Below are positions 4,137-45,874 of a stretch of DNA of 64,000 nt, in pieces. Source of the stretch: Caldisericia bacterium (lineage in GTDB: Bacteria; Caldisericota; Caldisericia; JAAYUI01). Made by a program: the position numbers and the translations under genes. The notes below the pieces were generated by a model. That model was not told the origin of the DNA. It searched no databases and saw nothing but the letters and a program-made list of their open reading frames with translations. Each line of letters starts with the position of its first letter. Position 1 is the stretch's first letter. The stretch is taken from the NCBI GenBank assembly GCA_963674785.1, contig OY771555.1, positions 736,001-800,000 of the forward strand, in the 5' to 3' direction.

Positions 4137-4152
4137 TGGCACAGAATTTGCA
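4137..4152 (+). promoter_or_regulatory. Sigma-54 (RpoN) -24/-12 promoter of the giant-protein operon
   Basis: TGGCACAGAATTTGCA: GG and GC separated by exactly 10 nt, matching TGGCAC-N5-TTGCW. Predicted +1 near 4163 coincides with the 5' end of the folded leader. Confidence 0.8.
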
Positions 4153-4161: not shown

Positions 4162-4406
4162 CTCGGAAGGTGTACGTGCTACGCCAGACGTGGTTTTTTG
4201 TTCTACCCGTCCTGGTGTGTGCGGGTGGCGGTGATGATGCCCGACATCTGTACAAGCGTGCGACTTCTGCGATACGTTTGACCAGCATTTATCTACACAC
4301 ACCTATGTGGTTTGGTGTGTGCTTTGGCTCAAAGTAATGAGTCGGTTTATGTTGTTGTGGTCACTGATGGTCAGGACAGGAAGCTGTTCTGAAGTCCTCT
4401 TCCGGG
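4162..4406 (+). ncRNA. Long structured 5' leader (cis-RNA candidate, family not recognised)
   Basis: Closing helix CTCGGAAG(4162-4169)/CTTCCGGG(4399-4406). Inner helices 4171-4176/4249-4254, 4203-4210/4221-4228, 4296-4303/4314-4321, 4326-4331/4338-4343, 4279-4284/4358-4363 and 4371-4379/4384-4392. The SD (AAGGAGAG, 4421-4428) lies outside the fold. Confidence 0.65.
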
Positions 4407-14315: not shown

Positions 14316-14335
14316 GTAGTACCATAGATTGACAT

Positions 14336-14388
14336 TTATGCTGTACCACCCCGATTAGGGTGGTACAGCCGAGAAAGAACAGATTTAT
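14336..14388 (+). promoter_or_regulatory. Conserved junction element copy 1: TTAT, 12-bp hairpin, CGAGAAAGAACAGATTTAT
   Basis: Stem GCTGTACCACCC/GGGTGGTACAGC (14340-14369), no U-tract; flanks match copies 2 and 3. Confidence 0.75.
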
Positions 14389-14536
14389 TTATTACGGTTT
14401 AAAAAAGATTGAAGATAATGAAGAGATTGATAAAAGAAGCGAGTAAAGAGAGATTGGTTTACCGTGAAGTTTTGGGTGAACCAAAGGTACATGACAAACT
14501 TCGATGCGGGGTTTGTCTGTCCGAAGGAGAGGTTAC

Positions 14537-17500
14537 ATGAGAAGAACTATAGTGATGCTCGTTGCAGTTACTATGATCATGGGAATATTTGCCCCAGTTC
14601 TTGGCTTAGCAAATGTTAATGCTGCGCCAAACAACGAGGTAATTCAGGGTAACGAACATGCCACACATATCATAGCCCAGTGGCATCAGGTTGGGCATGA
14701 TGAGTATGGCGACCCCCTCCCTGGTGGAAAATCCTTTCCATGGCAGCATGAAGGCACAAGCCTTAATAGCTACTGGGGAAGTGAAGAATATGGAATGCCA
14801 AATGCTATTCTTGCAAGGGCAAGTTCTGGTATTGCAAGACGCGTAAGGCAGAATAATGCTGCATCAACAGTACAGCCAATGCTCTGGACAAGAGTGTATC
14901 TCACAGTTATGGCTGACAACGGCGCTTCAAGACCCATTGTGGACGATAGGGGTGATTATAAGGGCGTCGGACTCTGGTATGTTGTAATGGACACCGCAGG
15001 GCAGGTCTGGTTTGATATGGACGGACACTTCCATGATGGAAGGTATCTTGCTACTGCCGACCCATTCTCACCATATTACCAGTATGAGGTTGATGATTCT
15101 GGCAATTCTTACGGTTCATGTCTTATCAACCCAATGGCCAAAGTTGACCCAACTGAAGCAAACAATACTCAGGGCCCATACCAGTTCTCCGAAGAGACTT
15201 CCACTGGTGAAGAAAATGAGCTCTATGTTGAACCATGTTATTTCTGGGTGAGACCAAACCTCATTAATAAAGTTAGCTCCCTCGATACAAACACAACTTG
15301 CGATGCTTATGCAAATCATACTCTTACAGGTGAGTCAAGGGCATGGCAGCTCGGTATCCTCTCAAGACCAGATTATCTTGGACAGGGTATTTCAAGTCCT
15401 CTTGGTAATGTCTCAGATGGTCTTGTAAGATCTGGTGAGTGGGATGTTGGACAGTCAACCATTCCATTCCTTGCAAATGAGCTTTTTGCAGATGCATTTG
15501 GCAACCTCAATAGTGCTGGTCCTGCACCAACAAACGGAACATATGATCCAGGCGATCCTATCTATAGAGATGTTGATGGTTCAAACTCCGTTACCGTTGG
15601 CGACATAAGACTTTCAAATGTTACTCTCGGTGTTCCTCCCGCAGTTACAACATTCCTCGGTGGAACCATTGTTGCTGCAGGCGACAGAGACATCAACACA
15701 TTTGGTGGTGCAACAGGTTGGAGCAACAATCTTTACTCAATGCCTCCAGGTTATGTTTACTGTGCCGCTGGCACTGGTGATGGAACAGAGCTTGAGTTCA
15801 GACATCTTGGAAATCCAACCACAAATGGCGAGTGGTCAGTTATTACTCCAGCAGGAACGTCATTTATTGCAGTAGAAGATGCTTCTGAAATCACTGCTGG
15901 ATCCACAGTCAGAGTTGGACCAAACAACCTTGGTCAGAGCCAGATTTGTGTTGTCACAAATGTTTGGAATGCACCACAGGCTGCGACAATGTATAACAAC
16001 TACAACTCTATAGGTTGTAATGGTTATCACAGATCATGGTATGACTATTACATCCAGGGTTTTAACGTTGGTGATTATGTTTATTTTGGTTCAACCAATG
16101 GTGGAGAGATGCTTAGAATTTCTGCTCTCTATTATTATGGTTATATGTATCACTATACTTGGGGATGTAGCGGCTCATCATCCTATACTGCTGTCAGATA
16201 TACTAGAGAACCACAGTTAAATCATGATCAGTATAGCTATAACGGAAGCAGCTACTGGTATGCTTATGGATATGATGTAATGACAAGAGTAGAACAAGGT
16301 CTTCTTCTTGATTGTGTTCTTGGAATCGACTGCGCAGCAGGCACTCCTGTTGTTCCAGTTGGTTACCAGCCAGGTGACTTTGTCTACATGCAGTTGGATC
16401 CAACAGCAAATCAGATCCAGGAAGGCGATATCCGACTTTCAAATGTCGATGTTCACAGAGATATTGCTGGAAACGTAATTGGACATGGTGCTTGGGAATT
16501 TGACGCTCTTGTTATGATGGAAGTCCTCTTTGCTGATCCAAATGACCCAAGATACCATGGAGCAGTTGGAAACCAGGACTGGAAAACATATTCAAATGAT
16601 CCTTCATACGATCTTATGGATTCAGACTGGAATGACATCGATCATCCATACGCACATTGCATGCCAACATATGATTTGACAGTTGAGTCAGATTTCTGGC
16701 AAGGTGAAAGAGTATGGGTTGATGATCCTGCAAATCCAGGTTCAATGATTTCTGAATGGCAGGGAGTTATCCCATCCGTTACTGCATGTGCTCTCAGATC
16801 ACCAAACGATGATGTTGACCCAGCACATCACAGAATCGCAAAACAGACAATCCTTGGCGATGAACCAGATGATTTCTTTATTCATAGCGCAACAATTCAT
16901 GGTGTAACACCTGACTACAGAGAATATCTCGGACTCGAACTCTTTGTCGATAGTGACTATGACAACAACCCAATTCCAAACCTTCCAGCAAACAATCCTG
17001 TGGCACTTGACCTTCATGATAACTATCAGCGTGGAGATGTCTGCTCAGCATATGCTGGTGCAACAAGCAGAGCCCCAGACCTTGATCTTTGGAGAGACCT
17101 TTCAACCATTGATGACTCCAAAGATTATCCGAAATTTATTGACCTTGATAATCCAGCTGCAATTCCTAATGACCCTGGTATGTATGGTTGCAACGAGCCA
17201 ATCTACTTTGACCTTGACCAGGATGGAACAGTTTCCCCAGGCGACAGACGTGGTTCAGATATTGATATCAGAACCGGTACAGTAACTGAAGGTTCACTTG
17301 ATAGCTTTGTTGCAGGCACAATTGTTCAGCCAGGTGATGTTGATGTAGGAAGAATTCTTTCCAGATTCCTTGATCCAACACCGGGCTTAACATACATGCA
17401 GCCTGTTTACAAGTGGTATGATATCCCACACGAAATCTCAAGACTTCCATCAGGATCTCTTGATTTAGGCGAACCAATTTATTACGACCACCCTGTTCTT

Positions 17501-20500
17501 CCAGACTTCCCAGCAGGAAACCAGCAGACAGACCCAGGTGACATTAGACTTAGTGATGTCAATGTCGCATCAGCACAGTATTTCTGTGGTGAGACAATGG
17601 GTATTGGTGACGTATTCACAAATGAATACCCACTTTATATGATTTCAATGGGTAAAAATGGTGATTATAACTACATCGACTTCCCAGTACTTCCATTCCC
17701 AACAATGGATGTCCAGATTGAAGTTGATAGACCACTTAAGGTTGAGCAGACAAGTAATGTCAAAATCACTGTCAACCCACCACCAAAACCAGGCGAGAGC
17801 ATCTTTGTTGCACTTCGTGAAACAAAACTTGAAGCAAGACAGCCTGTTGAGCAGATTGATTACTACTCAATGAAAAATGTTGAGGGTGAATGGTTAGAGT
17901 GTTCAGACCTTATTTCCCCAACCTATTGGAACGCCAATGCCACTTATGGTGCTGGCATGTATAGAGAAAATGTAAACATTGGATTCGACTTCCCATTCTT
18001 TGGACAGATATATAACAGACTTGAGATTGGATGGAATGGTTATGTTAACTTTGGAACCCAGTGGTATTATTATAGTTCCCAGTACACATATTATGGATAC
18101 TCAGGCTCTTCATACAGATATGCTGTTGTTCGACCATTAGATTATGCAAATAGTCCACCACGTGTTAACGCACTTGGCGGAAGATGGGGATGGCCTCCAA
18201 ATACCGAAGTTTGTTATGGTCAGGCGATTTGGCCAGCAACAGGCGAGACCGTATTTGTTATCCATTGGAAGGGTGTAAACTACTACAATGACGCAGACTT
18301 TGAAGTTGAAGTAATCCTCTTCCAGAATGGTGAGGTCCTAATTCAGTTCCAAAGCACGGCATGCCCAACATACTTCAGTGATATGAACGTTGGTATTACC
18401 AATGGTAACGGTGACTACTACGAATGGCTTGAAGGTGGACCATGTGGATTTGGTGATGAAGCAAATGTTCTCTTCTCCCCAGGTTCAATCCCAGCACAAC
18501 CAGGAAGACCAGCTCTTGACATCGCAGAAGATGATAGATGGATTACTGAAGATAACCCAGAGGCTAATTTTGAATTCACTCCATACAGAGGTACCTGTCT
18601 TGAAGACGGAACAAGACAGCCTGTTGAAATCAACCTTTATAGAGATGTAGGTGGAGTCAAAGACCCAGCGGTTGTTCCAAGGAACCCACCACCAAAAACA
18701 TATCTCACATATAGAGAGCCATCATACAACGTAGATGAACCTTACAACGGAAGAGTAATCGCCGTACAGGATGTTTATGGATATCTTCCAGGCGACTGGA
18801 TTCTCGTTGGAAATCTCAGAAATACTGAGAGAAGAATGATCACTCAGATTCACACTGGTACTGAAGGTGCTTATACTGAGATGATTGAGACTAACTTTAA
18901 CTCCTCATCTACCTCTAACAGATCTCATATCCTTCCAGTTAAGAGCATCGATGACTTCTATGTTGGAAACACACTTGTTGTCGGATGGAATACAAGCCCA
19001 ACACAGGAAACCCATGTTATTACCCATGTCTCAAGAGATATTGGTTATGATAACGGTACAAACCCAGATTTCCATTGGACAAGAGGTGCTGGTAATACTT
19101 CACATCCACAAGGTGAGAACGTAGTAATCAGACTTCAGGATGCATCAGGATTTGTCGTTGGTGACTTTATTGGAATGGGTTATTATCAGTGGTGGCCAGA
19201 TGATCCACAGTGTAGCGGAAGAGCTCTTTATGATGTTGCAAGAATTATCGATATTAATGGTAACGAAGTTACACTTAACAGAACACACCAATATTGGTAC
19301 TCCTACAATTATTATTACTATGCACATGTAAGAGGTATTGAGGTTAGAGACCCACTCAAGTATCGGCACTATGATGAGTGTGATGCTCAGGATGGAAGAG
19401 CAGAACAGGTTCTTACAACCAAGTTCAGCTTCACTCTCCATAGAGGACTTAACTACAACCATATCTTTGGTGAGCCAGTAGTTGGTATCGTTTACTTTGA
19501 CCCATTCTGGGTAGACAACAAATGGGAAAGATTCGATCTTGACATGTATCCAACACGTCAGTTCTCATCAATCCTTTCACCAGATACAGTTTCACCAGAC
19601 CTTGATAGCGGATACGATTGTTTCTTCAGAAGCAAGTGGAATATTGAGCCTGAAGAAATAGAAATTGTCAAAGCAAGGGATTGTATTTCACCACTTGATC
19701 AGAGATATCCAAACATCCTGCTTACCCTTATGGATGCCGATAACCCCAACGACGTAAACGATCCTGCAGATATTCCAATCTCATGCCCAGCCGGAGTTTC
19801 TGGTGTTGACCAGACAATTATCGCAAACGTTAATGTTAATGGTTGCGGAATTGACTATCTCTTTACAGCCGGCCAGGCAAGCCCGAACAGATTCATTGTT
19901 CAGGTAAACGATGACGGTACATATGATTGGTGGAGATGGTATGAGCCACTCGTACCAACACAGATTTTTGGTGCCCTTGATTCAAATGACTGGCTTTACA
20001 CATGGCTTGATGATGACCAGGGTGATGATCTTCTAGCACCTGCAACAAGAACACCAATGCCAACCCATGACAATACCTATGACCTCAGGCTTACTGACAA
20101 TGACTGCTCACTTGGTGGTGGCGTTTGTGACCCATGCAATGAGGGTTCAAAGTGGCCATGTCTTGGTGATGTGACACTCTATGATGCTTATGGAAGATTT
20201 ATGAATTCACTCGGAGATCCTTACTCCAACTATCCAAACCCACAGAATCTTCCAGCAAACTATGGAAACATCGAAAACTTCGGTATTCCTTGTGTTATCG
20301 ACAGATGGACTCTTGGTTCCGATGGTGGACAGATCATGTTCCCAGCAAAACCATTTGAATCAGGCGATCTTCACGTAAGAGTTTACACATATCAGGCCGT
20401 ATTTGATTACAACTCCTCGAATGTTCACTGGCCAGGACCATACTTCGTGCCAGATACATCACTTGGAATTGACTATTGTGGATATACAACAATTAAGGTC

Positions 20501-23500
20501 ATGGAGCCAGATGCAGATGTAAACTTCTCAGAGTTCAGAATGGTTGACCACGGTCTCCAGAACTCCTTGATCAATTACACAACTGGTGTCAACCCAATCT
20601 ATCCAATGGCACCTCCAGCTCCAAGAATCCAGGCATACTACAACCCAATTATCTATAACTACAATACAGAAGTTAGATCATACCCAGGTGGACAGACACA
20701 TACTGGTAGAATTATCGGTGGCGAAAGCGGACATTATTGGAACGCATATCCAGCAATCTGGGAAAACCAGTTTGTCAAACTTGGAACTGAGTTCCTTCCA
20801 CTTACTGACTATGGTATGTACTTCATTCTTATGAATGGTGAAGGAAACCATCTTGGTTATGGCAGAAGCCCAACACAGGAACCAGACCTTGCTCTCAGAT
20901 ATATGAAGATCACTGGTCCATTCATGAGACCAAAATTCTACAACGAGCAGACTCTTAACTGCATCCTTGGTGGAATGGATAGCCCATATTACGAATACAA
21001 TAACGTAATCGGTCTTCCAATTGCCTACGACTACAGCGGAGAGATTAACGTAAATAGCTCAAACTTCAGTTCATACTGTGATGCTTATGGAAGTGACTAT
21101 TCACAGGTTGGTCAGCCACTTTCATCATCAGATAGTGTTGTTTATGAAAATGCTAACACATGGCTTACCAACTGGAGAGACCTTTACTATGGTGGATTCT
21201 GGAGTGTTTCAAGAACCAACTTCAATTACCCAGTAGCAGATCCAGTGACTCCATGTTATCCATATGTTTGGGTATTTGATGAGCTTATTCCAATCGGCCC
21301 AGGTCAGATTGAAATTGAACTCCAGCTTTATAATGACATCAAGAAGGTTTACCAGGATTGCTGTGCTGCAGGACAGTCTGGAACAAAAGATGGAATTCCA
21401 GTACATGGTCTTAAGATTGAAGGCACACCACAGTTTGTAACCGTTCTTGAAGATAACGTTTTTGAGCTCACAGTTACCGAAGACTCTGGAAAAGGAATGA
21501 TCAACAATGGTGAGTGGCTCAACATCGAATGTAACGATGCAGTCCTCTTTGCATGGCAGGACAGAGGTATAGTCGATCCAGATTCAAACTATTGGTATGG
21601 TGCACTTGATGGAATCATCACCAACCCACCACAGTCCTCAACAGTATCCGGACAGGAAACTGCATATGACAAGATTTATGACAGAAACAACGATGGTCTC
21701 ATAAGATTCAATGATCGTGAAACAGAGATTGTTGGAACATATGATATGGCCACAAATACATGGCTCGGTGGAATGATTGATGCAAGAACATTCCAGAGAG
21801 AAAATGGTCAGTACAAGATTGAACTTACTGCTGAAAATGGTGGACTCATTGATGAAGTTGGAATCGATATTGGCGGACGTGATGAAAATAGAAGACCACT
21901 TCTTAGAAACCACGTAGACCATATCATTGATCAGTATGAGACATGCCCATTCAACATCACCGCTTACAAGTATGGTGATGACAATAACGATAGAGCATTT
22001 ACACCACTTCTTTATAACTGGTACTCACACGAAGTCTATCTTTCAGGACAGGTTTCAGTTCCAGTTGAACCAAGACGTGACCTTAACATTACATATAGCC
22101 CAGAACCACTCACAGCTGGTGTAATCCCAGAAAAAATTGGTGACCCACTTACATTCCACGTTACTGATTACAATGGTGACCCAGTTGACCTCTTCGCAAT
22201 TGGTCTCCCAGATGCACATGGTGATGCAGAGATTATCGAAACAGCAGTTCATGACATCCTCTTCAAAGATCCATTACCAGATGATGAATACTTCTATGGT
22301 GAAGGCGCAGTCATGCCTCAGTACTACTGGCTCAGAACCGACCTTCACAACGTTGAAGACGAAGAAGGAAAATTTAACTACAACTCAGCAATGTACTATC
22401 CAACCTTCCTTCCAATTGATTTCACACATGATTCTGAAAAAGGTGACTACACATTCAGAGGATTCATTGCAAACGATAAAGGTGAATTTGAAGTTTATGT
22501 CTATACACCAGACAGAAAACATTCAGGTGTTGTAACTGTTAAAGTTGCCTCACCAAAGGCTTCATATGAAGTTTCAAACAAGGATGAGCCAAACGCAATC
22601 TTTGATGTTCCATCAACAACAGGTGACCCAGACTTCGTGCTCACAGGTGGCGATAACAGAATCTACAACGTAACAGTAACATGTAGAAATGCTCAGGATG
22701 CACTTCTTAAGGGTGTCGCAAAAGGTGTAAGTGTCTGTTCAGGTGAAGGTGAAGATATTGCAAGATTTACTGTTGCAAACTCCATCCCACATAATTACCT
22801 TTGGGGATCAGTTTCATCATCTTCAACTGGTTACTCAGAGACCTATTATCATAACTATGCAGGAATCGATATTAATGATGATGGAAGTCTGACACAGCTT
22901 ACAATTGATCAGTCCGAATATGCTGAAATTAAATATCAGATTTACAGCAGCAATCCTGTTTACTATAACACTGCAAACACAAGATATACCGATCTTAACT
23001 ATGAAATTACTTCATGGGGTGGCTGGGGTGCTTGGTACCCAGGTAAATCTGATTATCTTCCAGCTCAGGCAAGCCGTGGATACAGTAAATTCATGGACTA
23101 CCAGAGAGGTTGGGGTAGAGGTTGTATCTATAATGATAAATATCATGGATCATATCTCTTCCCAGACTTCAATAGTGATAATATTCTCTCTTTCAGAGAC
23201 TCCTTCTCACTCAATGAACAGGGTAGAACAACATTCTTGTTCTACGCAAACGATGCTTGTTTCTTGACAGGTCTTGTTGGATACAATGATTATTGTAACG
23301 TAAATCAGTATGCTGACGTTGCCGGATATATGAACGTTCAGACAAGAATGGATCCGAACTACTCAAGATATAGATTCAACCCAACTTTCGGAATGGGTGC
23401 CACACCAGATGGTATCTATCAGCTTGACTGGGAAGCATGGCCAGATAAGAGTCTTGAGGTTGGAACACCAGACATTGAGATTATCAATCCTCTTACAGGT

Positions 23501-25111: not shown

Positions 25112-25154
25112 GTATAATTGTTCGAATACGAATTTAGTTTGAAACTTTAAAAAG

Positions 25155-25213
25155 TTATCCTTTCGGGTGCGTGGATGAAACCCGCCCCGAAAGGCGAGAA
25201 AGAATTGATTTAT
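25155..25213 (+). promoter_or_regulatory. Conserved junction element copy 2: TTAT, hairpin, CGAGAAAGAATTGATTTAT
   Basis: Stem CCTTTCGGG/CCCGAAAGG with bulged extension (25159-25194). The 3' flank matches copy 1 at 17 of 19 nt. Confidence 0.75.
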
Positions 25214-25330
25214 AGTTGGTTTGATAAGCAAAAAAATGGACTTCATTACTAGATTTATATCGGTTGAAAAAAAGGTTGAAGTGGCCCAAGATTGGCCCCT
25301 TGGTGGCTTAAGTCTAAAAGGAGAGGTCAG

Positions 25331-28300
25331 ATGAAGAGAGTACTAAGTTTGCTCGTAGCAACAATGATGATTATTGGCATGTTTGCTGGTACATTTATTG
25401 GTGCAGAGTCTGTAAAAGCTGTTGACGATAGCAAGGTTAAAGATGTAACAATGATCGTTGCAAAATTTAACCGTGTTGGATATGACCGCTATGGCAGACC
25501 CCTGAACAATGGTAGAGATACCGAATACGAGGGTGTCATTGTAAATTCATCCACTGGAAGATTCACGGTTGATCCATCTTACACTGGATATCCAACTTAC
25601 GATGCCCTGGATGGAACATTCTTCCCATGGCAAAATGAAGGTGAAGACCTTTGGGGAAGCCCTCAGTACATGATGCCAAATTGCATTGATGCAATCCAGA
25701 ACCCTGGAAGTGGCTCCATAACTGCAGCTGTAAACCAGCAGTCAGATGCTTCATGGGCTGTTCTTCCATATCTCTACGCTGAAGTATATCTTACAGTTAA
25801 GGCAGAGGGCGGAGAAAGTCAGCTTTATGACAAAAGATACATTGTGATGGATGAACTCGGTCAGCTTTGGATAGACCCAGATGGAAGATTCCATGATTGT
25901 AGATATTGGGAACCAGCAAACCCCGAGTCTGTTTATTACAGAAGCTCAACTGTCTACTCTGGTGATGGCTCAATTGACTGGAATGACTGTGACACAAACC
26001 CAAAGATGATTGTTGACCCAAGTGGTGACAACAATACTCAGGGACCATACATCATGAATCCAGCATATAACCCAAATGACATGGAGTATCCTGTTCCAAA
26101 GTATCACGAGAGAGTTCATTACTGGTGGTATGATGAGGAAAAGGAAATCGATAGAGTTTGGCAGCTTGGTATTGCAGACCAGACTGATTATCTCAGAAAA
26201 GATGCAGTTTGTGCTGATGGATATCATTCATCATGGGGTGTTGTTGGTGGACCAAATGGTGTAACTCCAAATGGTTACTACCCAGGAAAGCCAGTTATCT
26301 GGAACACCGTGATCTCCGATGACGACACAATCAGATGGTGCCCAAATGATGCAAACATTCTTGGTAATGACTGGGATGTTGGTCTTGCACTCACAAACTT
26401 CTCTGGTGGTGAGTATCTCATTGACGTCGATGGAAACGGTACATACACATACGGCGAGCCAATCTTCTCTGATATTGATGGCAACCTTATGTTTAATGAT
26501 CTCGACCTCAGACTTACTGCTTGGACAATTGTTTGGGGTGGTCAGTCATTCAACTTCCGCAAAAACACACTCGTTGGTCTCACAGATGAAGACTATCAGT
26601 GGCAACTTGCAAACAACTATGCAATCATAGATCTTTCAACCCTTCCAACCGTAAAACATAGTGCATCTGGCGGAACAAGTTTCTATGACCAGGTTTATGA
26701 TGATGCTGATGGCGATGATATGGTTTCTCTCAATGACATCAGACTTACCCACATCAACGGAAGAGTCACTGGTATGGGAACCACATGTGGTGGATTCTTT
26801 ACTGGCGATGCAATTATCATGCTTGAGACCCTCAAGACAAGCTGTTCATATGAGTATAACATTCATGTAGAATCAGACCTTTGGCAGGTAATGCAGGAAG
26901 ATACATATGAATATGTTGAGATGTATCCTTCAATGACTGCAGCACAGTTTACTTCACCAAATGGTGACATTGTCAGAATGTCTCAGCTTGTAAACAAAGC
27001 AACTGCACTTGATGTCAACGGATCAAATTTCTATGTTCCAACAACAACCTTCTACAATGTTGCTCTCAAGTACAGAGAATATATTGGTCTCCAGCTTTTC
27101 CTCGACAATGGTGTTGACAATAACCGTGCTGAAGGTGGAGATTGCTTCCAGCTTTCACTCTCAGACGATCATACAAACTTTGAGGCTGGCGAGCTCTTCA
27201 TTGGCTGTCAGGACGTCGAAACTGCAATGGACTACGATCTCGACCTCACAGAATTCAACGAAGAGTTCCTTTACTTTGAAACATCCTATGATATGACAAA
27301 CCCACCTGCAGTTCTTGATGGTGTTCAGTATGGTTGTGGTGAGCCTTTCTACAGAGACATCAAAAAGCTTCCACTCAACCCAGCAATCCCATTCCAGCCA
27401 GATCCATTCGATGCTGGATTCAACCCAGGTGTTGTAAACCAGGGCGACCAGAGAATGATTGACATCGAAGTTTATTCAGATGTTGCAACTGGTGATGCCG
27501 GAACAATGATTACATACCCAGCAGGTTCATTTGTTGTTGCTGGTGACCTTGATGTTGGAAGACCAATTATCAAGATGGATCCTGGACTTGCATATTTCGA
27601 CGAATCAAACGGCTGCAACCCTCCAAATGCGAGGTACGATGTTGGCGAACTTATTTATTTTGATCCAGCACTCGCTGCAGGAGCAAGAGCAATCCAGATG
27701 GTTGCATGGGATGATATTGGTCCTCACCCATATGGTATTGAAGACTTTGACCCATCACCATACACAGATCCAGTTTCGGGTCTTCCAGTAAACAGATGGG
27801 ATACCGTTCGTCACGGTGGTAACACTCAGGCCAGACTTTATCCTGGAACCAACAATAACGGTGGTGGTTCATATGGTATGTCTGGATGGATGGGTGGTGT
27901 GGTTCCTGGTGCTGGTATGAACTGGTACTATCACCAAAGAGGTGGACTCAGCAGAAACGCTCCAAACACCTATCCAACAAGACCAGTAATTCACAATGCT
28001 GGTGTCTCTACAAACAACACTTATTGCTATTATGTTTATTATCCATGGGGATATGAGTATGGATATGAGTATTTACGTACATATCATACTCAGTGTGGTG
28101 ACCTCCTTGCTCTTCAGAACGTGAATTTCCTTGGTGACTGGAGACTTAGGATTTGGGAAGACACAGAGTATTACATGTCCTCCCTATATACCTGGTTAGG
28201 ATATGGACCACTCTCATGCGGACCATCCACATACAACGGTAGAAGATATGCGTATGAATATTTTACCAGCAGTCATTCCTCAGCACTTGTTTGGTATAGA

Positions 28301-31300
28301 GGACTTGACAGCGAAGGAAATGATGTTTGTACAAATGCCGGTGGAATTTGGGATAACTATCAGTTTAATTATGATGTAATGTGCAACAACAGAAGTATGT
28401 ATACTTCTTCTTCATACCCAAAAATTATCGGTATGGGTTGTGTATATATGGACCATGTTGGTAATGGTTATGGACAGGAATACTTCCATAGTCCATATGC
28501 CCAGACCACTTATGGATGGAATTCTGGTACAGACATGTCAGCGATGCATTTCCTTAGATGGGAAGGCGCAACTCACCCAGACACTGGTGGACCATACTCA
28601 AGAGCTTATTCAATCGCAATGTTCAACGCGCCTCTTTCAGGCGACCTCATGACGTATGATACTGAACATGAAGTACAAACGACTGTATTTTCTGGATTAT
28701 GGACGATTAACGCGGAATTCTGGCCAGAAGAGATTCAGGTGAACCTCTCAGGTGCACCAAATACATTTGGTTCAATTGGTTTCAACCACGAAACATCAAT
28801 GAACTACTACTCATACTACTATGTTGGTTACGATGCATATTTCGATAATGCAAGAGCTTATCACATCGAGCTTATCCCTTCAGCCGGAGACAGAAGAAGA
28901 CTTCTCCAGGGTGGACATCACATTGGTATGAATGATTATGTCTATAGACTCGATGATGCTGGCGAATACAACACATCATCAGCAACAGCATCAAACCTCA
29001 AACCATTTAGCTACTTCTACCCATGCGGCACAAAACTTGCTGCTGGCGAAATCTATGACGTTAAGTCAAAAGTTTCAATGGTTTCAATGGGCAAATGCGG
29101 AGATCCAAGATTTATGGATATCCCTGTACTTCCAGGTGAAGTTGACCTTAATGTTTCAATCGATGGAGTCCCACAGGATCCAGATGCAAAATGGCATCTT
29201 AAAGTTGAACAGACATCTGACATTCAGGTTTCAGTTGACCCACCACCACAGCCAGGTGAAAAGTATGTTGTCAAGCTCAATGGTGTATATCAGGAAGGAA
29301 TTCCTGCAAAAGAGGCTTATACTGATTACATCCAGACTCGTGAGACAAACACATTCACAGAGTATTGCACAGGACTCGTTCCAGAATACGCAATCGATAA
29401 GGATAGTGACTATAGCGGAACAGGTTGGCTTGACGACACATATGTGACTTCACTCTCACTTCCATTTGACTTCCCACTTTATAATACCGTTTTCCCTGCC
29501 GGAAACCCGCTTTATGTCTCAACAAACGGTTACATCGGTTTCCATGAGTCAAATACTATGGGTAGTATTCCATCCACATACAGTTGGATTGGTTGGTATT
29601 ACAATAATGATTACAGAGACTTCACACTTGTACCGCTTGGAAATGACCAGAACCTCTATTACAGTCCATCTCAGGGTAATGATAACCCAGATCTTCAGAT
29701 ATTCTATTGTCAGCCTTCAGCAGACGAAGTTCGAATCAGATGGCAAACACATGAATATAGTCCAGGTCCATCCGCTGTTTCTCCTCCGACTCTAAACTTT
29801 GCTTGTAGCATTAAGAGTGATGGAACAATCAGGTTCATGTATGGTGATTGTGCAGGCGGATATCAGTATCGTACTGCAGTTTGTGGTATCGCTGGTGATA
29901 TTTCAGGTTCAACAAATCATGATGAGTATCAAGAGGGTTACTATGATGGACTTACAAACCCTGCCTTCGATTACCTTGATGACCTTGTGTTTACAAGATT
30001 TGAGTTCCCAGCAGATCCAGGAAGAGCTGGTGGTGGAACAGTTGATGATAACTATATCATCTCAGAAAACGTTGAAACAGCTCACAGTGATGCAATTGGC
30101 GGTGCAAGATACAAAGTTGTTGAAATCACTCCAGAGGAGAGAGTTCAGCATATAACATACACACCATACAGAGGTTCAGTACAGGAAGACGGTTCCTGTG
30201 ACCCACTCAGAATCGAAGTCTTCCTTGAAAGAGGCGGAGTATCATATCCTGTTCCAGTAGATTCTGTACTTTCTGGTGTAAGAGAAGAAAGACCACTTGA
30301 AGAGTATGAAGATCAGGAAATCGGTCTTTATAATTACAATATCTACGATCCATACTGGGTTGTAAGACCTTGGACAATCAAGATGTACGAGGGTCGCTAT
30401 ATTGGTGATCATACTCCAAGACCAGTTGCCTCAACTTCAGGACTCATCAGCTCAACTTGTGCTCTTGATCATCAGTATGATTGTTATGGCAGATTTGACT
30501 TGATGGTTGAACCTGAGTGGATTGATATTAAGTATGCCGGTACCGGTAATACATGTATTTCACCAGTTGACCAGAGATTCCCAAATCTTATCCTTACAGT
30601 TTGGGATGCAGATAACCCACTTGACGTAAACGATCCAGAGGCTATCCCATTCTCAACCATTGGACTTCAGAGTGGTATCAGAGGCAAGATGGTTGCCAAT
30701 GTCAATGCTCATGGTGCAGGTATCAAATACCTCTGTACCGCACAGAGTCCAGATGATGATACAGCAAAATATATTATTCAGGTCAATGATGATGGTTCCT
30801 ACACATTCTGGAGATGGTATGAGCCAGCAGAAGATAGGCCAGGCGCAGCATGGGGCGCACTTGACCCAACAGACTGGTTATATTCAGGAAGAACCTATTT
30901 CAATGGTATCTATGGTGATATTGGAAGCACATTTACCGCTACAAGACAGCCATGGACTGATACGGATGGATGGCTTCAGGCATTTACCGGAAATGGAAAT
31001 CTAACAACTGAACTTGATGATTATGATTGTTCAATCGATAAAGGCATCTGTGATGTCTGTCATCTTGGCGCTGGATTCCCAAATCTTGGCGATATTACAA
31101 TCGAAGACAGAATGGGAAGATTCAATAACAGCGTCTATGACCGTGAACCTCCATTCTTCCAGGGCTACAGTGGTGCAAGATTCGGAAGAATCGTATCATT
31201 TGGTATCCCAACAATGGTGACAAATTGGGATAACACTTCTGATGGCGGAGAGATTTATATTCCAATTCAGCCAAAAAACACAAGCACAGATCTTCAGATT

Positions 31301-34300
31301 AGAGTTTATCTTGCAAACACAATCTATGACTATAATTCAGTGATTTCTGGTTGGTCATTCGATGTTGATTCTCATCCAACATTCCATCCACCATACTTTG
31401 TCTATGATGATTCACCTGGAATCGACTATTGTGGTACATTCACAGTAGACGTACAGCCAGCTGACATCATGAACTTTGGTGAGTTCAATCTTGTTGACCA
31501 TGCTCTCCAGTTCTCAGAGACCGATTATACCGCAGGAGCGGAACCACTTGCTCCAATGGATAGACCATCACCACAGATCAGACATTGGTACAACCCAATC
31601 TGTGGAAACTACAAAGAAGACATGAGAGCCTATCCAGGTGGACAGTCACATACCGCAAGAGCAGTTGGTTCAGAGCGTGAAGGTGGATTCAATGCTTATC
31701 CAGCAATCAACTCCGAACTCTTTAACAAGCTTGGAACAGAATTCTATCCATTTACAGACTATGGATTCTACTTCACCCTCGTTTCCCCAACTTCAGTTGG
31801 AAATGGAAATGATATTATGAGCTACACTGATTGGGATCAGTACACATTCGACCCATATGGAACAATTGCAAGATCATACCCAGCACTCAACTTCAGACTT
31901 GTCGAATCGATTGAGGTAACTGGACCATTTATGACTCCTGCACATTATTACAGACCAAATATTATTGGTGCAACCTCAAGTAATGCCGGTTACATTGAAG
32001 AAAGACTCGTCAGTGAGTACAATTACAATGGTGTTGATAATGTACCAATAAGATACGACAGATCTGGCTACATTAAGATCGACAGAAGAAATTCACAGTA
32101 CTACGAAATCATGAATAATCAGGACTTCACAAATGTTGTGAGTCCAGGCTTCAGAGATGACTGGCATTCAGCACTTGGAGATCCACTTCCAACAAACAGA
32201 TACCTTGAAAGATCAAGAGACCTTGTTTACAGAAGCACAACTCCAGCGATCTATCACAGCTATCCAGGCGTCTACAATAACTATGTTTATGCAATCGATG
32301 AGATTATTCCAATCCAGCCTGGTAACATCGAAATCAAGGTTACCCTTGCTGATGGAACTGTAAAAATCTTCCAGGATTGCTGTACAAAACCAATCTCAGA
32401 TGGAGTTGATGTACACGCACTCGGAATCACACTCGATAATGCCGATGTTGAAGAGCGCGGTGGAATCTTTGTTGATGACACAATCACTCTTGATGTAAGA
32501 GTTACAGAAGACGAAAAACCAACAACTGGTGCAAGTGGATTCAACGAATGGGAATTCAGAGAGTGTAACGATGCATTAGTCTTTGCATGGCAGGATACAG
32601 GATACTTCGATCCACAGCAGAGTGTATGGATCGGTGCAGGTGATGGTTGGGTAACCAATCCACCAAAGAACTCCAATGTTTACCAGCAGGGAACACAGTA
32701 CTTGCCAGATGACGACTTCGATGGTGACGGTAAAGTATCATATGCCTCACACGAGACCGAAATCCTTGGTTCATATGATATCGCAACAAATACATGGACA
32801 GGCGCATTTATCGATGCAAGAACCTTCCATAGAAATGATGGACTCTATAAACTTGAAGTAGCTCCAGACAGAGTCGGATTTGACTTTGGTGGATTCGGAC
32901 CTACAGGTGATCCATTACCACCAGGTTACAGAGATCACGTAATCGGATTCGATGAAACACTTCCAGTTTGGATTGTTGCCTACAAGTATGGTGATGATAG
33001 TGGCGACAGATCATTCAGACCACTCTTTGATTCACTTCCAGATTCAGTTGGTTCAATGAGCCACGAGGTTTATCTTGCTGGAACAAGAGGATTTGAGGTA
33101 TTCCCACAGGAAGATCTCAACATGACCTACGGTCCAGAGCCACTTACAGCTGGTATGACTCCAGAGCTCCAGAATCCAGAAAGCCCACTTTACTTCACGT
33201 TCACCGATGATAGTGGAGAGCCAGTTGACTTTAGCAAAGGTGTCGAAGATGCTTGGGGCAATGCTGCCGTAATCGATAGAGATATCGCAATGCACTGTTT
33301 TGTCGACCCACATCTTGATAACGAGTACTACTACGGAATGGGTGCAAAACTTCCACAGTACTACTGGACAAGAACTGACCTTCACAACTTTGACGGTACA
33401 CCAATCTGTAACTCAATGATGTACTCACAGCCAAATGATCCGTTCACACCAATCACATTCGAGGTTGTAAGAGATTCGAACGGTGATCCAACTGGTAGAT
33501 ACAACTTCCTTGGATTCACTGCAAATGACCAGGGTGAGTTTGAAGTCTATGGTTACACACCAGATAGAAAGCACAGAGCAAAAGCAACCGTTAAGATTGT
33601 CCAGCCAAAAGTCAACTACATATTCGAAAACGAGAAGGGTGATACCTTTGAGCAGAATGATGATGCTGACTTCATGATGACAGCAAACGATGCACGTCTC
33701 TACAAGATCACAGCGAAGTGCTGGGATGGTCAGGGCGCACTCATTAAGGGTGTTGCAAAAGAAGTTTCAGTATGTTCAGGTTCAGGATCTGATACAGCAA
33801 GATTCACACCATATATCACAAGACCACAGAACTGGGACTTCCAGCTAGCCGACAATGATTATAACATGCTCACTTTCGGAACTGCTCAGTACGGATTCGG
33901 AACTGACCTTATCAGAGGACGTTACGACAAGCTCTTCCTCATCGATGAAGGAAATAGATACTATCCATTCCTTGGTATTGATATCACAAATGATGGTATC
34001 ATTGACCCAATGAACTCAATGAACTCAGAGATCTTTAGGTTCACTGCTATGAGACCATATATGCAGGCTTACTATATCCTCGCAGATACTTGGTATTACA
34101 CAAACTGGGCAGATCCATGGGTACATTTCAATACAACAAACACAAGATACGATGATTTCAGCTATGTAACTGAAGATTCATGGGATGTCATTCCATACAA
34201 TAACGCTGGTTGGGGATGGGGTTCTATCTACAACAACCCATACGAAGGTTCATACATCTTCGCAGACTTCGACCTTGACGGAACACTTACATTCGCAGAC

Positions 34301-36361
34301 TCACTTTCATTCAATGAAAATGGTGAAGTAAACTTCTACTTCTGGGCAGATGACATTACCAAGATCGGTGGATTGATTGGAAACAACAACCTCAGTAATG
34401 ACAGAGACTTCTCAGATGTTATCGGTTATCCAGGTTGGTATGGAAAATATGATCCTAACTACATGTACTACAGATATATTGCCAGAAAATCATACAGAGG
34501 ATTCTGGTATGGAACCATGGATCACACATTCAAACTTGACTGGGAAGCAATTCCAGACAGAAATGCATGCTCAGCCGCACCAAATGTGACACTCTATGAC
34601 CCAGAGACTGGCGAAGAAATGGATACCGGACTTCTTGAGGGTGAAGCTGATGAAAACCAGGAAGGTTTGATCCAGGAAGGTACTGATAAAGAGGTCATGA
34701 ACAGACTCTTTGGTCAGTTCGGATATATCGATAGATTGATTGATGAAGAAGAGTATGACTTCACATATGCAGTAAGAAATCATTTCGTTGTCAAAGTAAG
34801 CCCAGCAACCGAAGGTGACCTTGGTGTCTGTGGTTCTAGAGAAAGAAATGAATGGCTTGCCGAACAGGGTGAGGAAATGGAACAGGGATCCATCCTTACT
34901 CTTTCAGCCACCTCTCTCCTGTTTACAGGAAACAAGTATGAATCATCGATTAAGGGTAAACTCGGTGTTTCGGACGAGAGTGACACTGCTGAAACCATTA
35001 TGTACTGGACACCAACTGGAACTGGTAACAACGTTGCCACCTTGAGTCTTTCAAGGGAGTACAATTGGGGCATGAGAATGCACAGTAACGCTGATGTAAT
35101 AGGTTACGAATATGACTCACCTCTGTATATCGATGGCCTTGAATGGCTTGATGTTGTGACCGGTCTTGAAGTTACAGCGACACCATACAATGGAATTCTC
35201 AAGCTTGGTCAGCCAGACTCAGTTGTTGTAGTAGTAAAAGAAGCTTCAACAGAATATCTTGTTGAAGGTGCAAAAGTTACATTCAAATCAGAAGACGGTG
35301 AGATTGATCTTTCTGCAACAACAAATGCCATTGGTGAAGCACTCTTCCAGAATGTTACACCAACATCACAGTCAAAGATCATTATTGATGCAACTGCAGA
35401 AGGTTACACATCTGGTGACTCAGTACTCTATGTTGACCTCGACCTCACACCACCATCAATTGATGTTGATGACTTCGATTCAATCACAAATAGATCTTCA
35501 ATGACCCTTACAGGTACTGTTAGCAAGGGCGCAAAACTCGATGTTTCTAAGAAGGATGCAAAAGTCGGAGCAGATGGAAAATGGGAATCACAGGTAACAC
35601 TCACAGAAGGTGAAAACCTCATTACACTCCATGCTGTTGGTTCAAATGGTGTTGAGGCCGCAATGACAGTCATCATCAACCTTGATACAACAAAACCAAA
35701 CATCCTCCTCCCAACACAGGCTGATATTGATACCTTTGGTCTTATGGGTGACACCGATGAACTCTGGATTACAGGTAGAGTAACACCTGGCTCAAAGGTT
35801 GAAGTAACAGTTGACCAGGATGGAGACCAGAGAACAGTTCCAGTAACCGTTGCAAACGATACTTGGAAAACAGATTGGTTTGAAGTTAAAGCTGGTTCAG
35901 AGCTTACAGTAAGCGTCAAAGCAACTGATGCTGCCGGTAACGAGGGTTCCGAAATGGGAACCTACACAATCGTCAAGAAACTTGTTGTTGAGCTTGGACT
36001 CAGAAACAGCATTCCAGTAATCAACGGAAACCCAGGAAATGTAATCCAGCCACCAGAACTCGATGCACAGAACAACATCATGGTTCCAATCAAAGACCTT
36101 GAAGATCTCTTTGATGGTATGGCAGTGAACCCAGTGGGTAATGCTCTAACAGTTAGCTACAACGGACTTTCAGCTGAAGCAACTGTTGGAAGTACAAACT
36201 TTACAATCAATGGAAACTCTGCAACATTTGCAGCACCAATAATGACCGGAAGCAAGATTATGGTTCCAATTGCCTTCCTCCAGCAGGTACTTGAACTTTC
36301 AGGCGCAGATGTATCGGTAGATGTCTCCGGTACCACAATTACAATCACCATCATCGGCTGA
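25331..36361 (+). CDS. Giant secreted surface protein, paralog 3 (3676 aa), with a large Tyr/Gly-rich insert and a NIDO-like insert
   Basis: Start moved to the ATG at 25331 after SD AAGGAGAGG; signal peptide; shared core motifs; LPFDFPLYNTVF...LYVSTNGYIGF; C-terminal Ig-like and stalk domains. Confidence 0.9.
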   Translation: MKRVLSLLVATMMIIGMFAGTFIGAESVKAVDDSKVKDVTMIVAKFNRVGYDRYGRPLNNGRDTEYEGVIVNSSTGRFTVDPSYTGYPTYDALDGTFFPWQNEGEDLWGSPQYMMPNCIDAIQNPGSGSITAAVNQQSDASWAVLPYLYAEVYLTVKAEGGESQLYDKRYIVMDELGQLWIDPDGRFHDCRYWEPANPESVYYRSSTVYSGDGSIDWNDCDTNPKMIVDPSGDNNTQGPYIMNPAYNPNDMEYPVPKYHERVHYWWYDEEKEIDRVWQLGIADQTDYLRKDAVCADGYHSSWGVVGGPNGVTPNGYYPGKPVIWNTVISDDDTIRWCPNDANILGNDWDVGLALTNFSGGEYLIDVDGNGTYTYGEPIFSDIDGNLMFNDLDLRLTAWTIVWGGQSFNFRKNTLVGLTDEDYQWQLANNYAIIDLSTLPTVKHSASGGTSFYDQVYDDADGDDMVSLNDIRLTHINGRVTGMGTTCGGFFTGDAIIMLETLKTSCSYEYNIHVESDLWQVMQEDTYEYVEMYPSMTAAQFTSPNGDIVRMSQLVNKATALDVNGSNFYVPTTTFYNVALKYREYIGLQLFLDNGVDNNRAEGGDCFQLSLSDDHTNFEAGELFIGCQDVETAMDYDLDLTEFNEEFLYFETSYDMTNPPAVLDGVQYGCGEPFYRDIKKLPLNPAIPFQPDPFDAGFNPGVVNQGDQRMIDIEVYSDVATGDAGTMITYPAGSFVVAGDLDVGRPIIKMDPGLAYFDESNGCNPPNARYDVGELIYFDPALAAGARAIQMVAWDDIGPHPYGIEDFDPSPYTDPVSGLPVNRWDTVRHGGNTQARLYPGTNNNGGGSYGMSGWMGGVVPGAGMNWYYHQRGGLSRNAPNTYPTRPVIHNAGVSTNNTYCYYVYYPWGYEYGYEYLRTYHTQCGDLLALQNVNFLGDWRLRIWEDTEYYMSSLYTWLGYGPLSCGPSTYNGRRYAYEYFTSSHSSALVWYRGLDSEGNDVCTNAGGIWDNYQFNYDVMCNNRSMYTSSSYPKIIGMGCVYMDHVGNGYGQEYFHSPYAQTTYGWNSGTDMSAMHFLRWEGATHPDTGGPYSRAYSIAMFNAPLSGDLMTYDTEHEVQTTVFSGLWTINAEFWPEEIQVNLSGAPNTFGSIGFNHETSMNYYSYYYVGYDAYFDNARAYHIELIPSAGDRRRLLQGGHHIGMNDYVYRLDDAGEYNTSSATASNLKPFSYFYPCGTKLAAGEIYDVKSKVSMVSMGKCGDPRFMDIPVLPGEVDLNVSIDGVPQDPDAKWHLKVEQTSDIQVSVDPPPQPGEKYVVKLNGVYQEGIPAKEAYTDYIQTRETNTFTEYCTGLVPEYAIDKDSDYSGTGWLDDTYVTSLSLPFDFPLYNTVFPAGNPLYVSTNGYIGFHESNTMGSIPSTYSWIGWYYNNDYRDFTLVPLGNDQNLYYSPSQGNDNPDLQIFYCQPSADEVRIRWQTHEYSPGPSAVSPPTLNFACSIKSDGTIRFMYGDCAGGYQYRTAVCGIAGDISGSTNHDEYQEGYYDGLTNPAFDYLDDLVFTRFEFPADPGRAGGGTVDDNYIISENVETAHSDAIGGARYKVVEITPEERVQHITYTPYRGSVQEDGSCDPLRIEVFLERGGVSYPVPVDSVLSGVREERPLEEYEDQEIGLYNYNIYDPYWVVRPWTIKMYEGRYIGDHTPRPVASTSGLISSTCALDHQYDCYGRFDLMVEPEWIDIKYAGTGNTCISPVDQRFPNLILTVWDADNPLDVNDPEAIPFSTIGLQSGIRGKMVANVNAHGAGIKYLCTAQSPDDDTAKYIIQVNDDGSYTFWRWYEPAEDRPGAAWGALDPTDWLYSGRTYFNGIYGDIGSTFTATRQPWTDTDGWLQAFTGNGNLTTELDDYDCSIDKGICDVCHLGAGFPNLGDITIEDRMGRFNNSVYDREPPFFQGYSGARFGRIVSFGIPTMVTNWDNTSDGGEIYIPIQPKNTSTDLQIRVYLANTIYDYNSVISGWSFDVDSHPTFHPPYFVYDDSPGIDYCGTFTVDVQPADIMNFGEFNLVDHALQFSETDYTAGAEPLAPMDRPSPQIRHWYNPICGNYKEDMRAYPGGQSHTARAVGSEREGGFNAYPAINSELFNKLGTEFYPFTDYGFYFTLVSPTSVGNGNDIMSYTDWDQYTFDPYGTIARSYPALNFRLVESIEVTGPFMTPAHYYRPNIIGATSSNAGYIEERLVSEYNYNGVDNVPIRYDRSGYIKIDRRNSQYYEIMNNQDFTNVVSPGFRDDWHSALGDPLPTNRYLERSRDLVYRSTTPAIYHSYPGVYNNYVYAIDEIIPIQPGNIEIKVTLADGTVKIFQDCCTKPISDGVDVHALGITLDNADVEERGGIFVDDTITLDVRVTEDEKPTTGASGFNEWEFRECNDALVFAWQDTGYFDPQQSVWIGAGDGWVTNPPKNSNVYQQGTQYLPDDDFDGDGKVSYASHETEILGSYDIATNTWTGAFIDARTFHRNDGLYKLEVAPDRVGFDFGGFGPTGDPLPPGYRDHVIGFDETLPVWIVAYKYGDDSGDRSFRPLFDSLPDSVGSMSHEVYLAGTRGFEVFPQEDLNMTYGPEPLTAGMTPELQNPESPLYFTFTDDSGEPVDFSKGVEDAWGNAAVIDRDIAMHCFVDPHLDNEYYYGMGAKLPQYYWTRTDLHNFDGTPICNSMMYSQPNDPFTPITFEVVRDSNGDPTGRYNFLGFTANDQGEFEVYGYTPDRKHRAKATVKIVQPKVNYIFENEKGDTFEQNDDADFMMTANDARLYKITAKCWDGQGALIKGVAKEVSVCSGSGSDTARFTPYITRPQNWDFQLADNDYNMLTFGTAQYGFGTDLIRGRYDKLFLIDEGNRYYPFLGIDITNDGIIDPMNSMNSEIFRFTAMRPYMQAYYILADTWYYTNWADPWVHFNTTNTRYDDFSYVTEDSWDVIPYNNAGWGWGSIYNNPYEGSYIFADFDLDGTLTFADSLSFNENGEVNFYFWADDITKIGGLIGNNNLSNDRDFSDVIGYPGWYGKYDPNYMYYRYIARKSYRGFWYGTMDHTFKLDWEAIPDRNACSAAPNVTLYDPETGEEMDTGLLEGEADENQEGLIQEGTDKEVMNRLFGQFGYIDRLIDEEEYDFTYAVRNHFVVKVSPATEGDLGVCGSRERNEWLAEQGEEMEQGSILTLSATSLLFTGNKYESSIKGKLGVSDESDTAETIMYWTPTGTGNNVATLSLSREYNWGMRMHSNADVIGYEYDSPLYIDGLEWLDVVTGLEVTATPYNGILKLGQPDSVVVVVKEASTEYLVEGAKVTFKSEDGEIDLSATTNAIGEALFQNVTPTSQSKIIIDATAEGYTSGDSVLYVDLDLTPPSIDVDDFDSITNRSSMTLTGTVSKGAKLDVSKKDAKVGADGKWESQVTLTEGENLITLHAVGSNGVEAAMTVIINLDTTKPNILLPTQADIDTFGLMGDTDELWITGRVTPGSKVEVTVDQDGDQRTVPVTVANDTWKTDWFEVKAGSELTVSVKATDAAGNEGSEMGTYTIVKKLVVELGLRNSIPVINGNPGNVIQPPELDAQNNIMVPIKDLEDLFDGMAVNPVGNALTVSYNGLSAEATVGSTNFTINGNSATFAAPIMTGSKIMVPIAFLQQVLELSGADVSVDVSGTTITITIIG

Positions 36362-36383
36362 TTGTAGTAGATAGGATTGAAAA

Positions 36384-36439
36384 TTATCACTCTGACCCCA
36401 AATGGGGTCAGAGTGCGAGAGAAAAAAAGATTGATTTAT
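36384..36439 (+). promoter_or_regulatory. Conserved junction element copy 3: TTAT, 12-bp hairpin, CGAGAGAAAAAAAGATTGATTTAT
   Basis: Stem CACTCTGACCCC/GGGGTCAGAGTG (36388-36415), no U-tract, same flanks as copies 1 and 2. Confidence 0.75.
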
Positions 36440-45692: not shown

Positions 45693-45728
45693 AAAAAAGC
45701 CCCGGAGAAATCCGGGGCTTTTTCTTTT
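45693..45728 (+). terminator. Intrinsic (likely bidirectional) terminator ending the giant-protein operon
   Basis: AAAAAAGCCCCGGA-GAAA-TCCGGGGCTTTTTCTTTT. Confidence 0.9.
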
Positions 45729-45874
45729 GGATTTCACAAAACGTCCTCCGTTTGCTTTTAACTATAAATTAATCATATCCCCCTAAATATTGCAGAATTC
45801 TCATTTAAAATTTTAGAACCAGGTTGGGTTGTTTTTCGTTTCTGTTTATAGAAGAAAAAAATAAGGGGGTGTAT

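Follow-up and report, generated by a model that had tools for sequence, protein, structure and literature searches.

The 64,000-nucleotide (nt) window analyzed here (positions 736,001 to 800,000 of contig OY771555.1, assembly GCA_963674785.1; G000:C1:736001-800000 in the genome set used below) comes from a Caldisericia bacterium whose genome, a single contig of 2.23 Mb with 39% GC, is referred to as the source genome (G000). Four tandem genes on the plus strand of the window encode paralogous giant secreted proteins of ~3,000-3,700 residues, each with C-terminal Glucodextran_B and Cu_amine_oxidN1 domains, and all three junctions between these genes carry the same kind of element, in which a hairpin of variable sequence is preceded by TTAT and followed by a tail that runs from CGAGA to a GATTTAT box. 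Gene 1 (4434..14315) encodes a protein of 3293 amino acids (aa) with a signal peptide, and gene 4 (36553..45660) a protein of 3035 aa. Gene 2 (14537..25111) and gene 3 (25331..36361) start at ATG codons at 14537 and 25331, each with the ribosome-binding site AAGGAGAG; the list of open reading frames (ORFs) gives in-frame starts at 14504 and 25292, 33 and 39 nt farther upstream, respectively. The four-gene array of the window is termed operon A, and the name second operon is used for a pair of giant genes at position ~1555605 of the same genome.

Junction element 1 (14336..14388, plus strand) consists of TTAT (14336-14339), a hairpin of 12 bp with a loop of 6 nt (14340-14369), and a tail (14370-14388; CGAGAAAGAACA) whose last seven letters are GATTTAT (14382-14388). 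Junction element 2 (25155..25213, plus strand) has TTAT at 25155-25158, a hairpin at 25159-25194, and a tail at 25195-25213 (CGAGAAAGAATT) with GATTTAT at 25207-25213, and junction element 3 (36384..36439, plus strand) has TTAT at 36384-36387, a hairpin of 12 bp with a loop of 4 nt at 36388-36415, and a tail at 36416-36439 (CGAGAGAAAAAAA) in which GATTGAT and GATTTAT overlap (36429-36439). The hairpins start 24, 47, and 26 nt past the stop codons and have folding energies of about -23 kcal/mol (z-scores of -6.0, -3.3, and -4.9); the three elements score 60.5, 48.5, and 51.2 bits with the covariance model described below. A second box follows on the plus strand in the first two spacers (GATTGAT at 14425..14431, 112 nt before the start of gene 2, and GATTTAT at 25252..25258, 79 nt before the start of gene 3), and the second of these offsets is identical in all four genomes of the genus. 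The tail pattern CGAGARAR-N3-12-GATTTAT occurs three times in the window against 0.01 occurrences expected, a count reached in none of 100 shuffles, and on both strands of the 2.23-Mb genome its strict form is found in these three places only. Re-reading of the sequence bore out both the coordinates and the letters that the initial annotation, made from the window alone, had given for the three sites.

The same annotation held that the hairpins are not terminators, and this view stands: no terminator-like call was made on the plus strand at any of the three junctions, and inspection by eye of 17 other genes of the source genome longer than 1,800 aa found a hairpin and a T run after most of them. 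Its broader statement that no U-tract follows the stem on either strand holds for the operon strand and needs a caveat for the minus strand of site 3, where a weak terminator-like call with the tail ATAATTTTCA was obtained. The end of the operon is marked by a canonical intrinsic terminator (45693..45729, plus strand), a 13-bp GC-rich stem followed by a T run, and the U-tract that had been described there is clearly present. A hairpin and T run after gene 4 were found in all seven genomes compared (the source genome and six relatives).

A predicted sigma-54-type promoter (TGGCAC-N5-TTGCA, 4137..4152, plus strand) lies ~298 nt 5' of the start of gene 1 and agrees with the consensus TGGCAY-N5-TTGCW, including GG and GC placed ten bases apart. 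It is followed after ~12 nt by a conserved CGGAAG (4164-4169, plus strand), the predicted transcript start, and both features are kept upstream of gene 1 in all five of the relatives from which this region was fetched (in the sixth, G003, the contig ends inside gene 1). The source genome contains rpoN and encodes one strong enhancer-binding protein. Seven matches to the strict sigma-54 pattern were found in this genome, of which four immediately precede genes of 2,977-3,293 aa (window positions 4137-4152 and genome positions 660957 (+), 686299 (+), and 602954 (-)), and giant surface proteins are perhaps its main sigma-54 regulon. Within the three spacers, there is neither a sigma-54 pattern nor a sigma-70-type match on the operon strand; one plus-strand sigma-70-type match spans the stop codon of gene 2, upstream of hairpin 2, and the three remaining matches are on the minus strand, two of them overlapping junction 3. 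With one sigma-54 promoter and one canonical terminator in the array, and with spacers free of operon-strand sigma-70-type matches, the most likely product of the four giant genes is one transcript of ~41 kb that runs from the promoter at 4137 to the terminator at 45693.

Conservation and strand of the junction element

An orthologue search with the C-terminal 500 residues of gene 2 as the query identified six relatives with the four-gene array, three belonging to the same genus as the source genome (G001-G003) and three to two other genera of the same family (G005, G008, and G009). The 18 internal junctions of these relatives were combined with the three of the window into a set of 21, and the six operon ends were fetched as well. 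Over the C-terminal 500 residues, identity among gene 2 orthologues is 53-62% inside the genus and falls to 44% between genera; for the gene 2 paralogues of the source genome it is ~30%. An alignment of the elements with MAFFT misplaced the variable stems and was replaced by a covariance model bootstrapped from one sequence; a single copy was used to align ten, and the model was rebuilt and used to align all 21 junctions, giving the final model (R3).

Each of the 18 orthologous junctions carries a GC-rich hairpin of unrelated sequence followed by the tail and the box; the flanking motif reported in the initial annotation has thus been lost at none of them. The stem is immediately preceded by T in 19 of the 21 junctions and immediately followed by CG in 18 (rarely TG or AG), and a GATT[T/G/C/A]AT box lies 10-17 nt past the stem, after a purine run, in every case. 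Conservation of the flanks extends over three genera; the remainder of each spacer can barely be aligned from one genus to another. The stems are of ~11-19 pairs (median 13), with unrelated loops of 3-18 nt, in hairpins 28-44 nt long. Standard pairs occupy 98.3% of the 235 modelled cells, compared with 44.2% after shuffling and 44-52% with slid partners, a comparison that is biased in favor of pairing by the fitting of the final alignment to the structure. The stems are nevertheless perfect or near-perfect in the raw sequence of each copy, independent of the alignment, and compensatory two-sided changes were found at all 12 modelled pairs. Hairpin energies in the 21 junctions range from -17.6 to -27.2 kcal/mol (mean -23.4), and this narrow band, maintained despite unrelated sequences, suggests selection on stability itself.

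The strand on which the element acts is indicated by several features. The modelled pairs include 15 G.U pairs against one A.C pair, the mean fold energy is lower on the sense strand than on the antisense strand (-23.4 versus -21.0 kcal/mol), and GATTNAT boxes in the 21 spacers (2,812 nt) number 40 in the forward and one in the reverse direction. The density of this box is 14.2 per kb in the spacers and 0.61 per kb in the genome, with shuffled spacers yielding a mean of 1.25 and a maximum of 5 compared with the 40 observed; as the first box is part of the definition of the element, the second boxes alone count as independent evidence. Two boxes are present in 19 of the 21 spacers, at irregular distances from each other (4 to 45 nt), and the tails are 76% purine and 11% T. 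Because of the excess of G.U over A.C pairs, the lower sense-strand energy, and the one-directional boxes, the element is best described as a feature of sense RNA, and the pattern of sequence change across the 21 copies marks it as a conserved structure under selection.

Distribution and position of the element

In the source genome, the final model recovers the three window copies with E values of 5e-10 to 4e-7, and the next match has an E value above 4. When the scan was extended across related genomes, as had been proposed with the initial annotation, copies were found in 7 of 11 family genomes and 7 of 84 class genomes, always at these orthologous junctions (two copies in G008 at the threshold used). 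These counts are lower bounds, as are all absences in the covariance searches, given that the whole-genome search scored 150 of 750 first-look candidates in the source genome and missed a true copy of 27.5 bits. The four family genomes without the element also lack a close gene 2 orthologue (best E values of 1e-37 to 1e-42, compared with 1e-97 or better in the others).

The missed copy, recovered with a descriptor script run over the source genome as a second search, lies outside the window at genome position 1555605 (~1555598-1555660), between genes encoding proteins of 4,684 and 2,732 aa of the same protein family. Its parts are TTAT, a stem of 9 bp, a tail of CG and purines, and GATTTAT in two copies, and its hairpin is the third in a spacer of 308 nt. 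The element, its stems covarying, is also present at this junction of the second operon in G001-G003; the corresponding junction of G008 has no box, and the element is absent from it. The element is therefore specific to junctions between giant genes but is not obligatory for them. Long structured spacers also appear to be a trait of this one family when it is compared with its sister family.

The distance of the element from the downstream gene is steadier than its distance from the upstream gene. From the end of the hairpin to the next start codon, there are 111-167 nt in the 21 operon A copies and ~116-139 nt (measured by eye) in the second operon, whereas the distance from the previous stop codon to the hairpin is 12-126 nt in operon A and ~170-220 nt in the second operon. 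The element thus tracks the downstream gene and not the preceding stop codon. The leader of gene 1 provides a related example: in the window, a short hairpin followed by a box-like GGTTTAT is located at 4324..4350 (plus strand), ~89 nt before the start codon, and across the gene 1 leaders a short conserved hairpin is followed directly by GATTTAT, TATTCAT, TATTGAT, or GGTTTAT at -89 to -98. Given this steady downstream spacing and the box-like sequence in the leader of gene 1, the element may serve the 5' end of the downstream mRNA at least as much as the 3' end of the upstream mRNA.

Possible functions of the element

The junction element is tentatively read as an intercistronic processing or stability signal on a sigma-54-driven polycistronic mRNA, an interpretation drawn from sequence comparison to which we give slightly less than an even chance. 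The proposal of the initial annotation, a cleavage or protein-binding signal that cuts the giant transcript into 3'-protected mRNAs or else a pause or antitermination signal, is supported in part. In the mechanism envisaged, the sense strand of the ~41 kb mRNA would form a stable hairpin of ~-23 kcal/mol at each junction, its stem sequence being free to vary, between fixed single-stranded flanks (U before the stem; CG, a purine run, and GAUUNAU after it). Hairpin and flanks together would direct an endonucleolytic cut beside the stem, probably by the membrane enzyme ribonuclease (RNase) Y, and the cut would separate the cistrons and leave hairpin-protected ends, giving each ~10 kb mRNA a lifetime of its own. 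The cut might fall on either side of the stem: in the U-rich stretch before it, with protection of the 5' end of the downstream mRNA as the result, or behind it, in the tail or the box, with protection of the 3' end of the upstream mRNA. RNase Y, the main endoribonuclease identified, is encoded in the source genome (positions 1921685-1923205; 678 bits, above the cut-off), and RNase E/G was not found in this genome, which is rated 92% complete; RNase III and RNase J were not part of the search.

The closest parallel is the selective RNA processing and stabilisation (SRPS) of the cip-cel operon of Ruminiclostridium cellulolyticum, where intergenic stem-loops that are rich in GC and lack U runs cause the transcript to be cleaved next to the stem and shield the resulting ends (PMC4423207, PMC10311766). 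The stem-loop, and not the sequence that is cut, is reported to direct cleavage, with most cuts just downstream of the stem (PMC4423207, PMC10311766). The two systems share intergenic GC-rich stem-loops without a U run, a long operon (a probable one here) of secreted or surface proteins, and a sole canonical terminator at its end, and a stable GC-rich stem-loop without a U run, one of the features of an SRPS signal, was found in all 21 junctions of the present set. They differ in that three genera retain U(-1), CG(+1,+2), the purine run, and GAUUNAU here, in that the processed ends of the present system are predicted ones, and in the phylum of the host. RNase Y sites of Firmicutes offer a second parallel. 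In Staphylococcus aureus and Bacillus subtilis, a hairpin a few nt downstream places the cut, and the enzyme is described as preferring a purine, G over A, before the cut, with the sequence just after the cut setting the efficiency (PMC11321564). The junction element resembles the sites in cggR/gapR-gapA, glnRA, and saePQRS in having a nearby hairpin with G-C pairs, in a genome that encodes RNase Y, and differs from them in that its conserved sequence is downstream of the hairpin and in that the enzyme is here a putative one. Overall, the element appears to be an intercistronic stem-loop whose distinguishing marks are the conserved flanks and the restriction to giant-gene junctions.

Several observations weigh against a processing role. 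The flanks of the cleavage sites in cip-cel are reported as not conserved (PMC10311766), so that the fixed flanks found here would need something extra, perhaps a specific binding protein. A site for a general RNase would be expected to be widespread, and full-flank copies in the descriptor scan number only four in the source genome, each of them at a junction of two giant genes. Nor is the element needed for giant genes to adjoin each other, as the second giant-gene pair of G005 and G009 is separated by 15-18 nt without it, and in the sister family the spacers between giant genes are ~30-50 nt long and have no hairpin. Two metatranscriptome runs (5-6% of sampled words) yielded contigs of 115-289 nt from coding regions only, none of them crossing 14336 or 25155 within positions 12000-31999; contigs of this kind are uninformative on RNA ends and co-transcription. 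Finally, the steady distance to the start codon and the box in the gene 1 leader fit a regulatory site in the 5' untranslated region (5'-UTR) equally well.

A bolder form of the processing interpretation, which we regard as quite unlikely, supposes that a sequence-specific factor reads U-[stem of 11-19 pairs]-CG-purines-GAUUNAU and cuts the 41-kb transcript into four separately stabilised giant mRNAs, the mark being reused in the second giant-gene operon. Such a factor could be an RNase Y adaptor, or a tRNA-processing enzyme acting on a minihelix mimic. The stem lengths of ~11-19 pairs and U(-1) are compatible with tRNA-like punctuation (an RNase P/Z substrate), and the loops of 3-18 nt are unrelated; no tRNA-like gene was found in the window with ARAGORN. 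If this form of the interpretation were true, the dedicated mark would amount to a bacterial equivalent of tRNA punctuation that evolved because the messages are too long to persist whole.

The alternative that survives best, although it is unlikely, is the 5'-UTR site already mentioned, in which an RNA-binding protein or a small RNA would read the purine run and the repeated GAUUNAU boxes beside the hairpin and set the translation or lifetime of the downstream gene, with no need for cleavage. Such a site is favored by the contrast between the steady distances to the next start (operon A, 111-167 nt; second operon, ~116-139 nt) and the scattered distances from the previous stop (12 to ~220 nt). 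It is also favored by the leader of gene 1, where a hairpin is followed by a (G/T)ATTNAT box at -89 to -98 and no cistron lies upstream. The second box at exactly -79 in junction 2 of four genomes and the strictly one-directional boxes point the same way, but fixed offsets within a genus may reflect close relatedness only. No candidate binding protein was identified, and the spacers themselves hold no partner sequence for the boxes (one reverse-complement box in 2,812 nt).

A signal at the level of transcription is improbable. According to this alternative, a hairpin-dependent pause or weak factor-dependent attenuator would stop the polymerase 10-17 nt past the hairpin, at the box, and thereby tune read-through or ribosome loading. 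In his-type pauses, 10-12 nt separate the pause hairpin from the RNA 3' end, a spacing close to the hairpin-to-box distance found here, and a purine-rich RNA:DNA hybrid would be expected to resist release, as befits a pause without termination. However, the box is not in all cases preceded by a pyrimidine (by eye), and the box variants are not all compatible with the TTNTTT pause motif of NusG. A NusG paralogue that might serve as a dedicated factor is also lacking: exactly one NusG match was obtained in 10 of the 11 family genomes, and none in the eleventh, which is 69% complete.

Slightly less probable still is the combination, in each spacer, of an insulating hairpin and a promoter or operator inside the operon; the GATTNAT boxes would then be DNA sites (-10-like TATAnT sequences or regulator repeats) from which each gene is separately transcribed or controlled. 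A terminator followed by a promoter is a common layout, and several boxes run on into TATAAT-like hexamers (e.g., GATTTATAAT in junction 2 of G005 and G009). Against this stand the spacers' lack of an operon-strand sigma-70-type match or a sigma-54 pattern, the lack of a conserved -35 sequence, whose position falls in the variable stem, and the hairpins' lack of U-tracts, so that they would not insulate. The irregular spacing of the boxes (4 to 45 nt, out of helical phase) likewise argues against phased DNA sites. Least credible is a relic of tandem duplication with little present function, in which genes and spacers were copied together: the four genes are indeed paralogues and the fourth copy of the element also adjoins a paralogue of the same family, but the duplication is older than the three genera, the nearby coding sequence has drifted to ~30-44% identity, and the stems have been wholly rewritten with pairing and the range of -17.6 to -27.2 kcal/mol kept, which is unlike neutral relics.

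Other known elements were compared as well. The element resembles an intrinsic terminator in having a GC-rich hairpin of ~-23 kcal/mol shortly after a stop codon, and differs from it in having no U-tract, with purine-rich tails in all 21 copies and canonical terminators in use elsewhere in the same genomes; an intrinsic terminator was set aside for want of the U-tract. Repetitive extragenic palindromic (REP) sequences and bacterial interspersed mosaic elements (BIMEs) are likewise intercistronic hairpins able to protect the 3' end of the upstream mRNA. Copies of REP number in the hundreds, are dispersed, and have a stem sequence in common. The present stems are unrelated to each other, with variation at every modelled pair and four full-flank copies in the descriptor scan of 2.23 Mb, and this candidate was rejected. 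As in the stabilising Shine-Dalgarno sequence (STAB-SD) of cryIIIA mRNA, a purine-rich tract precedes the start codon by more than 100 nt and lies close to a possible processed 5' end; pairing of the 21 tails with the 3' end of 16S rRNA, at -3 to -7 kcal/mol, is matched by that of shuffled tails (-2.5 to -6.3 kcal/mol), and ribosome binding by the tail was discarded. True ribosome-binding sites pair with the same 16S end at -9 to -10 kcal/mol. A boxB-boxA (nut-like) antitermination site, in which a hairpin is followed by a boxA that binds NusB/NusE, would seem unlike the element, as boxA is pyrimidine-rich and the tail, by eye, purine-rich. Integron attC sites, ends of insertion sequences of the IS200/IS605 type, Fur or IHF boxes, sigma-H or sigma-28 promoters, and CsrA or Hfq sites were set aside by eye, on general knowledge of these motifs. 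Searches against Rfam 15 gave no match in the window at gathering scores, and only two matches at chance level (E = 2 and 4.9) in the loci of 12 of the 21 operon A junctions (8,912 nt). No description of the element was found in open-access literature on RNA processing, on sigma-54 and giant surface proteins, or, among the best 15 of 80 matches, on Caldisericota.

The element is of interest because of the length of the genes it separates. These genes are of 9-11 kb, and a message of 41 kb, or even of 10 kb, is unlikely to be completed and translated in full within the half-lives usual for bacterial mRNA. A compact, strongly conserved, and covarying RNA signal found only between giant genes therefore provides a concrete handle on how very long mRNAs are kept usable. 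It also adds sequence-specific flanks to the idea of the intercistronic stem-loop, the studied clostridial case having structure and no consensus. If cleavage were confirmed, the flanks would be a defined substrate for finding the factor that recognizes them in a deep-branching and little-studied phylum. The association of sigma-54 promoters with genes for giant surface proteins in the source genome is a further lead.

Spacer ORFs and neighboring genes

Small ORFs occur in the spacers at 13 of the 21 junctions, started by ATG, 21-43 codons long, and ending on an ATGA overlap with the next gene; in the window, those of 32-40 codons lie at 14418-14540, 25236-25334, and 36446-36556, each ending on a TGA that overlaps the next ATG. 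They are probably non-coding, because each lacks a ribosome-binding site and the reading frame is not maintained from genome to genome. Junction 1 of the other two genera is without such an ORF, and at junction 3 the conserved stretch shifts frame between G000 and G001. They were accordingly dropped as candidates for the conserved feature and are read as by-products of conserved RNA sequence. Junction 3 also contains a conserved sequence, GAACCTTCAA (36520-36548 and equivalents in the six relatives), that could pair with the GAAGG of the gene 4 ribosome-binding site, and this pairing is a possible site-masking hairpin at gene 4.

Downstream of the operon, three tandem genes encoding proteins of 585, 579, and 550 aa with Cu_amine_oxidN1 domains are located at 45824-51036. 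In G001, G005, and G009, the gene that follows the operon resembles, by eye only, one for a small sigma-factor-type protein.

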